The notes below the pieces were generated by a model. It had not been told where the DNA came from, ran no database searches, and saw nothing but the letters and a program-made list of their open reading frames with translations. A program made the translations under genes and the position numbers. From sequence record MK373775.1: DNA of 64,000 bases. One strand, given 5' to 3'. Source of the DNA: Escherichia phage vB_EcoM_WFK. Of the stretch, positions 6,211-9,041 are shown in pieces (the stretch's first letter is position 1; each line of letters starts with the position of its first letter).

Positions 6211-6284
6211 TCCCGTATTATTTGGTTTGTGCCATTATATACATCAATCTCAAGATGTGTTTTGTATGCTTTAAAAACGAAGAA

Positions 6285-6300
6285 AGGGGCCGAAGCCCCT
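6285..6300 (-). terminator. UUCG-tetraloop hairpin with T-run downstream of hoc (minus strand)
   Basis: Minus strand reads AGGGGC-UUCG-GCCCCU followed by TTCTTCGTTTTT. Confidence 0.5.
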
Positions 6301-6303
6301 TGA

Positions 6304-6798
6304 TTATGGATATGTATAGATGATACCAGTTTCCAAAGCAGTTTTATGGATGATGTATCCATTACGTGATTCTTGAACATCAACTTCTGGATAGTCTTTC
6401 ATCATCTTCTGAAGCGTATAACGATGCAAGTAATACTTACTATCTGGATCTTCAGTTTTCCAATCTTTACCTTCTTCAGTCATTTTTTGGATTTCATCCA
6501 TAACCCACCAACCGCACCAGATGTAAGCTGAAGTACGATGTGGAAGAGGATGAACATAAGGTAATTCACCTTCTGGAACTGTATTTGTTGCAACTACTTT
6601 AATAGTCTTTTGACCGGCAGGTCCTTTTAGTACATAACTAAAAGTTGCTTCAGCTCCATCTTGCGGAACATCATCTACAGACCAAGCATATGTAATAGTT
6701 CCACCTCCAGTTTCACCACCGGGAGTAGCAGTAAACTGCTTAGTCTCATCTATAACTCCAGTAGGTGTTTTAGGAGTTATATCAACTGTAAAAGCCAT
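6304..6798 (-). CDS. hoc: Head outer capsid protein Hoc, short form (one Ig-like domain plus the capsid-binding domain)
   Basis: 164 aa; the N-terminal ~75 aa and C-terminal ~85 aa match T4 Hoc domain 1 and the capsid-binding domain; the middle Ig domains are missing. Confidence 0.8.
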   Translation of the reverse strand: MAFTVDITPKTPTGVIDETKQFTATPGGETGGGTITYAWSVDDVPQDGAEATFSYVLKGPAGQKTIKVVATNTVPEGELPYVHPLPHRTSAYIWCGWWVMDEIQKMTEEGKDWKTEDPDSKYYLHRYTLQKMMKDYPEVDVQESRNGYIIHKTALETGIIYTYP

Positions 6799-6807
6799 AA
6801 GTTATCC

Positions 6808-7476
6808 TTATTTTAATGTTACGAAAGAAGAATTACGAGTTTCACGAATTAGAACTGATCCATCGCGATTAATATAATAAATTAAGCTAAATAATGTTTG
6901 GTGAGCAGAAGCGTGCACAAAACTGGTTGGGCGAGATTTCCAATCTGGGGTTTCGGCTATCCATTGATAAATCCACCAAGGAACAGTAACATATCCTGGG
7001 CCTTTGCCTAATTTAATGAGTGTAGGACTAAAATTTTCAGGCAGAACAAATTTTACTTCTTTATTTACCTCTGGATCAGGCTCTTTTTCAGATTCAACAA
7101 CCTGAGTAATTGCTTCTTCGAATTTATCATGGTCGAATTCTTTTTCTTGTTCGACAACTTCTAATACTTCAACTTGTTCTGTTGGAGAATCAAACAACAG
7201 AATAGCTTCTTCTTTAACTTCTTCGTTGGTGAAATTAACACCGTCCACATCATCTGCGGCAGTAATTAAATCGGTGATAGATAATCCATCGGTTTCAGGT
7301 AATGGTTCATCAGCCAGTGCGTTAAGAGCTTCTTCGATATCAATAACAATATTATCGAATGATTTTGTTTTCTTAACACTAATGCCAAATTGTTTCGCAT
7401 ATTCGAACAGTTTAGCTTTGGCTTCCTTTTTATCAGAAAGAGCACGTAACTCTTCAATATAGTCTTTATCGATCAT
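6808..7476 (-). CDS. inh: Inh-like protein (inhibitor of prohead protease), acidic
   Basis: 222 aa, highly acidic, in the hoc-inh position; T4 Inh is of similar size. Confidence 0.5.
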   Translation of the reverse strand: MIDKDYIEELRALSDKKEAKAKLFEYAKQFGISVKKTKSFDNIVIDIEEALNALADEPLPETDGLSITDLITAADDVDGVNFTNEEVKEEAILLFDSPTEQVEVLEVVEQEKEFDHDKFEEAITQVVESEKEPDPEVNKEVKFVLPENFSPTLIKLGKGPGYVTVPWWIYQWIAETPDWKSRPTSFVHASAHQTLFSLIYYINRDGSVLIRETRNSSFVTLK

Positions 7477-7489
7477 GGTATTTCCTCAT

Positions 7490-7497
7490 TATAAATA
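7490..7497 (+). promoter_or_regulatory. T4-type late promoter (TATAAATA) upstream of uvsW
   Basis: Exact TATAAATA about 30 nt upstream of the uvsW ATG. Confidence 0.45.
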
Positions 7498-7526
7498 TAA
7501 CTATATTTATTACATGGTAATTTGAC

Positions 7527-9041
7527 ATGACTGACATTAAAGTACATTTTTATGATTTTAGTCACGTGCGCATTGAATGCGACGAAAGTACGTTTTACGA
7601 ACTTCGTGACTTTTTTAGCTTTGAAGCTGACGGGTATAAATTTAACCCAAAATATCGCTATGGGAACTGGGATGGTAGAATTCGACTTTTAGATTACAAC
7701 CGTTTGTTACCATATGGACTTGTAGGACAAATAAAAAAGTTCTGTAGCAATATGAGTTATTCTGTATGGATTGACCCTAAAATCTTTGAGACCGAAGACC
7801 TTACCAGAGAAGATTTTGACGCATGGCTTTCTAAACAAGAAATTTATTCAGGCAACGCCAAAATCGAACCACATTGGTATCAAAAAGATGCAGTATATGA
7901 AGGACTAGTTAATCGTCGTCGAATTTTAAACCTTCCGACATCAGCAGGTAAATCACTAATCCAAGCACTTTTAGCTCGATATTATCTAGAGAATTATGAA
8001 GGTAAAATTCTCATTATCGTCCCTACAACAGCATTGACAACCCAGATGGCTAATGATTTTGTTGATTATCGCTTGTTTAGTCATTCGATGATTAAGAAAA
8101 TTGGCGGTGGTGCTGATAAAGCAGACAAATCTAAAAACGACGCTCCAATTATTGTTGGCACATGGCAAACAGTAGTTAAGCAGCCTAAAGAATGGTTCTC
8201 TCAGTTCGGTATGATGATGAACGATGAATGCCACTTAGCAACAGGCAAAAGTATTTCTTCAATCATCGCAGGATTAAATAATTGTATGTTTAAATTCGGT
8301 TTATCTGGCTCATTAAGAGACGGAAAAGCCAATGTAATGCAGTACGTAGGTATGTTCGGCGAAATCTTCCGTCCTGTTAGCACGTCTAAATTAATGGAAG
8401 ACGGACAGGTAACTGAGCTTAAGATTAACAGTATTTTCCTTCGTTATCCGGACGAATTCACCGTTAAATTAAAAGGTAAAACATACCAAGAAGAAGTTAA
8501 AATTATTACCGGACTAAAACGACGTACAAAGTGGATTGCTCAACTTTCAGTCAAATTGGCTAAGAAAGACGAGAACGCCTTTGTAATGTTTAAACACGTT
8601 ACACATGGTAAAGAAATATTTGAAGCTATTAAAGAGCTTGGATACGAAAAAGTTTATTACGTATCGGGTGAAGTTGATACTGAAACACGTAACGCGCTTA
8701 AAGTCATGGCAGAAAATGGTAAAGGCATTATTATTGTCGCATCATATGGAGTATTCTCTACTGGTATTTCAGTCAAGAATCTTCATCATGTTATTTTCGC
8801 TCATGGTGTTAAATCAAAAATTATCGTACTTCAAACCGTAGGTCGCGTACTTCGTAAGCATGGTTCTAAAGCTGTTGCTACAGTTTGGGATCTCATCGAT
8901 GACGCAGGTGTAAAACCTAAATCATTAAATACTAAAAAGAAGTATACTCATCTTAATTACTTGTTAAAACACGGTATTGATCGTATCCAACGTTACGCTG
9001 ATGAGAAATTTAACTATGTAATGAAAACAATTAATTTATAA
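7527..9041 (+). CDS. uvsW: UvsW DNA/RNA helicase (SF2, recombination-repair)
   Basis: 504 aa; N-terminus nearly identical to T4 UvsW; Walker A LPTSAGKS and a DECH box. Confidence 0.95.
   Translation: MTDIKVHFYDFSHVRIECDESTFYELRDFFSFEADGYKFNPKYRYGNWDGRIRLLDYNRLLPYGLVGQIKKFCSNMSYSVWIDPKIFETEDLTREDFDAWLSKQEIYSGNAKIEPHWYQKDAVYEGLVNRRRILNLPTSAGKSLIQALLARYYLENYEGKILIIVPTTALTTQMANDFVDYRLFSHSMIKKIGGGADKADKSKNDAPIIVGTWQTVVKQPKEWFSQFGMMMNDECHLATGKSISSIIAGLNNCMFKFGLSGSLRDGKANVMQYVGMFGEIFRPVSTSKLMEDGQVTELKINSIFLRYPDEFTVKLKGKTYQEEVKIITGLKRRTKWIAQLSVKLAKKDENAFVMFKHVTHGKEIFEAIKELGYEKVYYVSGEVDTETRNALKVMAENGKGIIIVASYGVFSTGISVKNLHHVIFAHGVKSKIIVLQTVGRVLRKHGSKAVATVWDLIDDAGVKPKSLNTKKKYTHLNYLLKHGIDRIQRYADEKFNYVMKTINL

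Follow-up and report, generated by a model that had tools for sequence, protein, structure and literature searches.

A private in-frame deletion in hoc of Escherichia phages vB_EcoM_WFK and vB_EcoM_WFL6982, with a 7-bp microhomology at its junction, leaves a complete capsid-binding domain and an Ig-like domain without strand G

The window, that is, the whole 64,000-nucleotide stretch of Escherichia phage vB_EcoM_WFK DNA analysed here (MK373775.1), carries an allele of the head decoration gene hoc that has lost its internal Ig-like domains in frame. The open reading frame lies at 6304–6798 on the minus strand, begins with ATG and counts the stop codon in its coordinates; its product, mini-Hoc, has a predicted mass of 18.5 kDa and a pI of 4.9. 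We consider it likely that this is a recent, private allele generated by a microhomology deletion, and that its product is a capsomer-bound stub bearing a crippled Ig remnant. The locus comprises the following features:

6304–6798, minus strand: hoc deletion allele (mini-Hoc), 164 aa plus stop codon, from the ORF list, the match to T4 Hoc and phrog_1149
6571–6798, minus strand: Ig-like domain 1 remnant, codons 1–76, from nucleotide identity to AV111, the AF2 model and alignment
6570–6576, minus strand: deletion junction with the 7-bp microhomology CCAGAAG (hoc nt 223–229; cttctgg on the plus strand), from the breakpoint scan
6307–6570, minus strand: complete C-terminal capsid-binding domain, codons 77–164 (T4 Hoc 289–376), from contact residues and Foldseek
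6284–6301, minus strand: intrinsic terminator-like hairpin AAGGGGCTTCGGCCCCTT plus T-run, from a terminator scan, also annotated in MK373774.1
6805–6809, minus strand: putative Shine–Dalgarno AAGGA, read from the sequence
6808–7476, minus strand: inh, prohead protease inhibitor homologue, 222 aa, from the ORF and the annotation of relatives

A phmmer search against PDB sequences matched mini-Hoc to T4 Hoc (5vf3_Z, 376 aa; E=2.6e-110), aligning residues 1–77 with T4 Hoc 1–77 and residues 71–164 with T4 Hoc 283–376 (204.7 bits), and PHROGs placed it in 'Hoc-like head decoration' (phrog_1149, E=1.4e-75). Together with the synteny of hoc, these matches bear out the preliminary description, made from the sequence alone, which had recognized a 164-residue Hoc and quoted its sequence correctly; only the N-terminus, given as MxFTV, needs qualification, as it reads MTFTV in T4 and MAFTV in mini-Hoc, the latter as in its Mosigvirus relatives. 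Residue by residue, mini-Hoc 1–76 are equivalent to T4 Hoc 1–76 (~92% identity) and 77–164 to T4 Hoc 289–376 (~98% identity), and the in-frame loss, first estimated at about 210 internal residues, is exactly 212 relative to T4 and G2469 (376 − 164). The N-terminal part also matches Ig domains 2 and 3 of T4 Hoc weakly, and these secondary phmmer matches indicate that the three Ig domains of Hoc are paralogous modules. In a Pfam scan, mini-Hoc gave just one sub-threshold match, to DUF4384. Whether strand G is present or not, Pfam misses domain 1 of Hoc (the PKD match in AV111 is domain 2), and it is therefore uninformative on the intactness of the Ig remnant.

Mini-Hoc is 100% identical to a coding sequence of MK373774.1 (QBQ76940.1) that is annotated there as 'hypothetical protein', and the 3.5 kb around hoc are, over the stretch compared, 100% identical to this genome, that of vB_EcoM_WFL6982 (Straboviridae, Tevenvirinae, Mosigvirus; source sewage, Germany). 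For vB_EcoM_WFK, the same 164-aa sequence is on record as QBQ77201.1 (164,590-bp genome); WFK and WFL6982 were isolated in one study and are possibly siblings from a single sample. The paper on the WFL6982 phage (PMC6563267) makes no mention of Hoc. The annotation should read hoc instead of 'hypothetical protein': mini-Hoc has the capsid-binding C-domain, as seen by phmmer, Foldseek, contact residues and PHROGs. It lacks the N-terminal string of complete Ig-like domains with short linkers; its ancestry makes it a hoc allele all the same, although its architecture departs from the canonical one. The WFL6982 genome (164,279 bp) is 5–6 kb smaller than those of most close Mosigvirus relatives (~169–170 kb); since the hoc deletion explains just 0.35–0.64 kb of this, further deletions are to be expected elsewhere in the genome.

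The position of hoc is that found in T4. In the ORF map and by Pfam, rnlB, the 24.2/24.3 homologues, hoc and inh occupy the minus strand, DUF2774/24.x genes are among their neighbours there, and uvsW is encoded by the plus strand; hoc is thereby placed between inh and 24.3/24.2/rnlB, opposite uvsW, and the gene order is identical in mobillu, G2469, AV111 and the loci L028–L031. The inh gene, whose homologous loci carry Pfam Phage_Inh_N/C, is located upstream of hoc in the same transcription unit. The AAGGA motif sits 6 nt upstream of the hoc ATG and overlaps the inh stop codon, and the AAGGGGCTTCGGCCCCTT hairpin, a strong one, is directly 3' of the hoc stop codon. Upstream of inh–hoc on the minus strand, the exact T4 late promoter TATAAATA was not found, and the nearest minus-strand late-promoter-like site facing inh–hoc is the one-mismatch AATAAATA at 7504–7511, upstream of inh. 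The divergent intergenic region between inh and uvsW (7476–7527) contains an exact TATAAATA on the plus strand only (7490–7497), facing uvsW. A sigma-70 promoter scan performed no better than on shuffled sequence. On synteny alone, hoc is presumed to be transcribed.

Comparison with relatives defines the deletion to the nucleotide. The breakpoint scan, run against the hoc alleles of G2469, AV111 and mobillu and then of NicPhage, JS09 and AV110, located the breakpoint at about hoc nt 222–229, where one copy of CCAGAAG is kept. In full-length relatives the heptamer occurs twice, once after '..ATNTVPE' in the context ACA GTT CCA GAA G/CT GAA GCT (..NTVPE/AEAE..) and once in '..APEPEGELP' in the context GAA CCA GAA G/GT GAA TTA (..PEPE/GELP..). 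The DNA spanning the mini-Hoc junction reads ...ACAGTTCCAGAAGGTGAATTA..., and the predicted tryptic peptide across it is VVATNTVPEGELPYVHPLPHR. The deletion amounts to 636 bp (212 codons) relative to 3-Ig alleles and to 354 bp (118 codons) relative to AV111, and it joins non-homologous sites, the F–G loop of domain 1 and the linker from domain 3 to the C-domain. The preliminary description had proposed recombination between repeated Ig modules. This origin is ruled out by the position of the junction, the length of the microhomology and the deleted length: CCAGAAG is a 7-bp match between non-homologous sites, and neither 212 nor 118 codons is a multiple of the 94–96-codon module. Mini-Hoc accordingly shows neither the whole-module indel nor the homologous junction of an in-register module variant.

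We propose that replication slippage or illegitimate recombination between the two CCAGAAG copies may have cut 636 bp from a 3-Ig parent or 354 bp from an AV111-like 2-Ig parent. Such a deletion would have struck a non-essential gene, with the reading frame kept by chance. The N-terminal 229 nt of hoc show no difference from AV111 (2 Ig) and one from NicPhage (3 Ig), and the C-terminal 273 nt show 2–8 differences from the relatives, the closest being AV110 (3 Ig, 2 differences); this closeness of the N-part to AV111 and of the C-part to the relatives points to a recent origin. The hoc region is thus a mosaic, its N-part nearest to a 2-Ig and its C-part nearest to a 3-Ig allele, and the parent could have been of either type. 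All seven differences between mini-hoc and AV111 are synonymous; since these changes may be older than the deletion, they do not show that the mini allele has been under selection.

Our comparison of hoc length across relatives, a check that the preliminary description had proposed, gave 164, 282, 376 and 472 aa within Mosigvirus, among phages that are ~97–98% identical over the flanking 3.5 kb. AV111 Hoc has 282 aa, the Hoc proteins of G2469, JS09, NicPhage, AV110 and most others 376 aa, and that of mobillu 472 aa. The corresponding loci are:

mobillu, L002, 1207–2625: hoc
G2469, L003, 1208–2338: hoc
AV111, L004, 1207–2055: hoc

With 2, 3 or 4 Ig modules in AV111, G2469 and mobillu, respectively, one genus displays a recent polymorphism in fibre copy number. 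Relative to 3-Ig alleles, AV111 carries a 282-bp (94-codon) in-register deletion with the junction motif ACTGC.AC.GATTA.GAT (VTATDYD), placed at the end of strand F in modules 2 and 3, so that a complete hybrid domain results. In mobillu, module 2 has been duplicated in register (288 bp, 96 codons), which yields four Ig domains. Taken with mini-hoc, these alleles show that hoc changes its length in two ways, by recombination of modules in register and by microhomology deletion out of register.

T4 Hoc (PDB 5VF3/8T1X) and the Hoc proteins of G2469, JS09 and NicPhage share with mini-Hoc the gene, the locus and the capsid contacts. Unlike T4 Hoc, mini-Hoc lacks residues 77–288, which comprise strand G, the D1–D2 linker, Ig domains 2 and 3, and most of the D3–D4 linker. 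The 2-Ig 'variant Hoc' proteins of ΦPNJ-9, AV111, KIT06, BYEP01 and EP01 (282–283 aa) are likewise naturally shortened and belong to close relatives, and the domain 1 DNA of AV111 is identical to that of mini-hoc; the 2-Ig alleles, however, have lost exactly one 94-codon module and their remaining Ig domains are complete, whereas mini-Hoc was cut out of register. MUC2 binding has been shown experimentally for the 283-aa 'variant Hoc' of ΦPNJ-9 (PMC11853027). Among IMG/VR relatives, Hoc lengths of 179, 254–282, 367–378, 439–472 and 1107 aa occur, and the published range extends from one Ig domain (PG7, 233 aa) to ten (Muldoon, 1174 aa) (PMC10385173).

The structural consequence of the deletion falls on Ig domain 1. 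The alignment to T4 Hoc confirmed an internal 212-residue deletion, and it also showed that the boundaries are not the clean domain boundaries first described: the cut runs from the F–G loop, after residue 76, to the linker preceding the C-domain. Of the proposed fusion of the first Ig domain to the C-domain, the C-domain is indeed complete, but Ig domain 1 is without strand G and the linkers are lost. The remnant keeps strands A–F, and strand G and the D1–D2 linker are gone. In the AF2 model of AV111 Hoc (mean pLDDT 87; domain 1 blocks 90–97), domain 1 consists of strands A (4–8), A' (13–15), B (19–27), C (34–41), E (52–56), F (62–73) and G (80–91), and the first strand of the C-domain lies at 200–202. 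The deletion removes AV111 residues 77–194, and with them strand G and both linkers; AEAETAEASTTITVQNK is the stretch with strand G that is absent from mini-Hoc. The AF2 model of mini-Hoc (mean pLDDT 77, pTM 0.43) contains strands at 4–8, 19–27, 34–41, 52–56 and 66–73, with residues 1–73 forming a six-stranded sandwich (pLDDT 77–84), and no strand was predicted between F (66–73) and the C-domain, where pLDDT is about 47–59 over residues ~71–91. As the alignments behind the two models differed in depth (17 and 30 sequences), the drop in pLDDT from AV111 to mini-Hoc is only suggestive; AF2 is no predictor of stability, and with a six-stranded sandwich still modelled the remnant may yet fold. In Foldseek, the N-terminal part of mini-Hoc gave marginal Ig matches (E ~0.1), and the AV111 model gave 717 matches at E ≤ 0.001. 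The Ig remnant without strand G is probably destabilised.

Whether a single, truncated Ig domain might nevertheless serve as a short adhesive fibre is best judged against Hoc proteins that naturally carry one. Such proteins exist in Thanatos-1 (Shewanella; 179 aa), in PS49 (Aeromonas; 185 aa) and in the IMG/VR locus L024 (179 aa), and also as the short Hoc of the Enterobacter phage PG7 (233 aa) and as metagenomic forms of 177–198 aa. We aligned 16 natural one-Ig homologues of 177–198 aa, including those of Thanatos-1 and PS49. All 16 have the G-strand motif 'ETAExxTxLTV' and a linker before 'LPYVHPLP', and mini-Hoc has neither; the gap from 'KVVATxT' to 'YVHPLP' is 18–38 residues in each of the 16, as compared with 7 (VPEGELP) in mini-Hoc. 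Both the alignment and the AF2 model therefore set mini-Hoc apart from the seven-stranded Ig domain plus linker of the natural one-Ig forms, which are 13–34 residues longer and lineage-wide, whereas mini-Hoc is a private allele.

These comparisons bear on the view that mini-Hoc is a functional, selected one-domain Hoc whose Ig domain folds and projects a short adhesive fibre from each hexamer, a view that we regard as unlikely. It would fit the in-frame deletion with C-domain and expression signals intact, the existence of the one-Ig forms in Thanatos-1, PS49, L024 and PG7, the pLDDT of 77–84 over residues 1–73, and the occurrence of the allele in two isolates; an in-frame allele shared by two isolates is also what selection for a functional short form would be expected to leave. 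In addition, positions 29 and 33 of Hoc domain 1 are critical for MUC2 binding in ΦPNJ-6 (PMC11853027), and mini-Hoc has E29 and G33, presuming that its numbering matches that of ΦPNJ-6. Against this view, mini-Hoc lacks strand G and the whole linker, which all 16 natural one-Ig forms keep, and its junction is private and lies at a chance 7-bp microhomology, at no module boundary. Judging from strand order, moreover, the chain without strand G would exit at the N-terminus end of the domain, making the native head-to-tail geometry impossible.

The capsid-binding half of the protein, by contrast with the Ig remnant, is complete. PMC10385173 attributes capsid interaction to the C-terminal domain of Hoc, and the Hoc residues given there as gp23* contacts or as shaping the binding loop are Y293, H295, H299, R300, Y304, W306, W309, W310, D313, Q354, E355-S356-R357-N358-G359 and Y360 (Fokine et al. 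2023, PMC10385173). All 16 listed contact or structural residues are kept in mini-Hoc, each at the T4 position minus 212. The top Foldseek match is 8t1x_X, the T4 Hoc C-domain on the gp23* capsomer (E=1.4e-11, 96% identity), and the gp23 docking segment G326–R344 is identical in the window phage and T4. The gp23 gene itself lies at 1327–2895 on the plus strand of the window and encodes 522 aa, one residue more than in T4, at the N-terminus. The T4 capsid displays foreign proteins that have been fused to either end of Hoc, N- or C-terminal (PMC3012670), which indicates that docking tolerates large changes elsewhere in Hoc.

Since the 16 contacts and the gp23 docking segment are conserved, mini-Hoc is most likely a capsomer-bound stub. 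According to this preferred reading, mini-Hoc would be made late, along with inh, and would dock via its unchanged C-domain as one copy per gp23* hexamer, so that a short stub would stand in place of the ~180 Å fibre. From the computed net charges (~ −8 for mini-Hoc and ~ −21 for 3-Ig Hoc), each copy would bring ~13 fewer negative charges, and the head surface would be less negative. Ig-mediated adhesion would then be reduced or almost abolished, making the allele hypomorphic or near-null in this respect. Because phage growth does not require Hoc (PMC3012670; PMC10385173), such a deletion allele would be tolerated.

A more drastic outcome would be that mini-Hoc is degraded, aggregates, or is blocked from docking by the abutting Ig remnant, leaving Hoc-less virions and an effectively null allele; we think this distinctly unlikely. 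In mini-Hoc, no more than 7 residues lie between strand F and contact residue Y81, and the junction region has pLDDT <60; this short connection could hinder docking sterically, in which case mini-Hoc would be off the virion. Loss of Hoc is tolerated, and frameshifted or truncated hoc genes are frequent in T-even phages (T6, UPWr_E2, CE1, ACG-C40). However, in native Hoc the linker between the last Ig strand and Y293 exceeds that of mini-Hoc by just ~3 residues, neither the C-domain with its 16 contacts nor the gp23 docking segment has changed, and the T4 capsid displays Hoc with foreign terminal fusions, the C-domain being the capsid binder.

Frameshifted copies of hoc are about as common as in-frame deletion alleles. 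In T6 (P0107), UPWr_E2 (P0100), CE1 (P0106), ACG-C40 (P0112) and P0087, hoc is cut short right after 'SGVKK' in Ig module 2, a position at which mobillu has an A7 run (hoc nt 763 of L002). These truncations represent either a frameshift hot spot that is hit repeatedly, and through which Hoc might be switched on and off, or errors in sequencing the homopolymer.

Other irregular in-frame deletions of hoc were found in assemblies, namely P0019 (182 aa), P0022 (232 aa), P0026, P0028 (133 aa) and P0064 (130 aa). Like mini-Hoc, these alleles keep the start codon and the C-domain, and some have cut Ig domains, but their junctions and lineages differ from those of mini-Hoc and mark them as independent events. 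P0019 (L028, 2501–3049) has the junction ..KTQTTT/YVHPLP.., which keeps strand G, removes the first residues of the C-domain linker and leaves the C-domain intact. In P0028 (L031, 716–1117), domain 1 is cut after strand C and the C-domain is intact. P0064 (L030, 2501–2893; GCA_036930585.1, a 166,205-bp contig labelled E. coli) is a 130-aa Hoc chimera with a JS98/Dhakavirus-like start of 43 residues (96% nt identity to L010) and a T4-like C-domain (98% to L008), joined with an overlap of ~7 nt; the contig is evidently a complete T4-like phage genome within a bacterial assembly.

Counting mini-Hoc together with P0019, P0022, P0026, P0028 and P0064, there are at least six independent in-frame hoc deletions that retain the C-domain, although the search query itself held the C-domain, so that alleles keeping it were preferentially found. 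It is very improbable, in our estimate, that the C-domain has a function of its own, as a plug or mask at the hexamer centre or in tuning surface charge, for which selection would keep an in-frame stub while the fibre is repeatedly shed; given this bias and the similar frequency of frameshifted copies, the six alleles speak neither for nor against it.

The deletion junction is private to this allele. A 67-nt junction-centred query was recovered full-length and in one piece only in MK373774.1, 1 of 663 hoc-bearing phage records; seven further records are 2-Ig alleles. A degenerate 35-nt junction pattern was absent from IMG/VR, the JGI metagenome contigs and the GTDB representative genomes. The identical proteins of WFK and WFL6982, possibly siblings, suggest that the allele was present before isolation, and the occurrence of the same protein in a second isolate further argues that it is not an assembly artefact. 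Collapse of the Ig repeats by an assembler, or another sequencing artefact, is conceivable in that hoc does contain paralogous Ig modules, but is very unlikely: the junction shares only 7 bp and its flanks are otherwise unrelated, the modules are too divergent (at the protein level domain 1 matches 2 and 3 weakly), the deletion is in frame, and the independently assembled WFK genome encodes the identical 164-aa protein.

Mini-Hoc is thus a private deletion allele of a known protein and not a new kind of protein; its architecture and the allele itself are undescribed, and shortened Hocs and a variation from 1 to 10 domains have already been published. It leaves known Hoc biology unchanged; its value to specialists is less as a surprise than as a natural reagent. 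Both WFL6982 and WFK are viable phages from nature, and their Hoc consists of the capsid anchor and a six-stranded Ig remnant. With AV111 (2 Ig), G2469, JS09 and NicPhage (3 Ig) and mobillu (4 Ig), the stub of WFL6982 and WFK forms a natural series that could be used to test the role of fibre length and Ig content in mucus adherence, pH-dependent clustering and immunogenicity. The same series could test the minimal N-terminal appendage on the Hoc anchor, which bears on T4 display and vaccine platforms.
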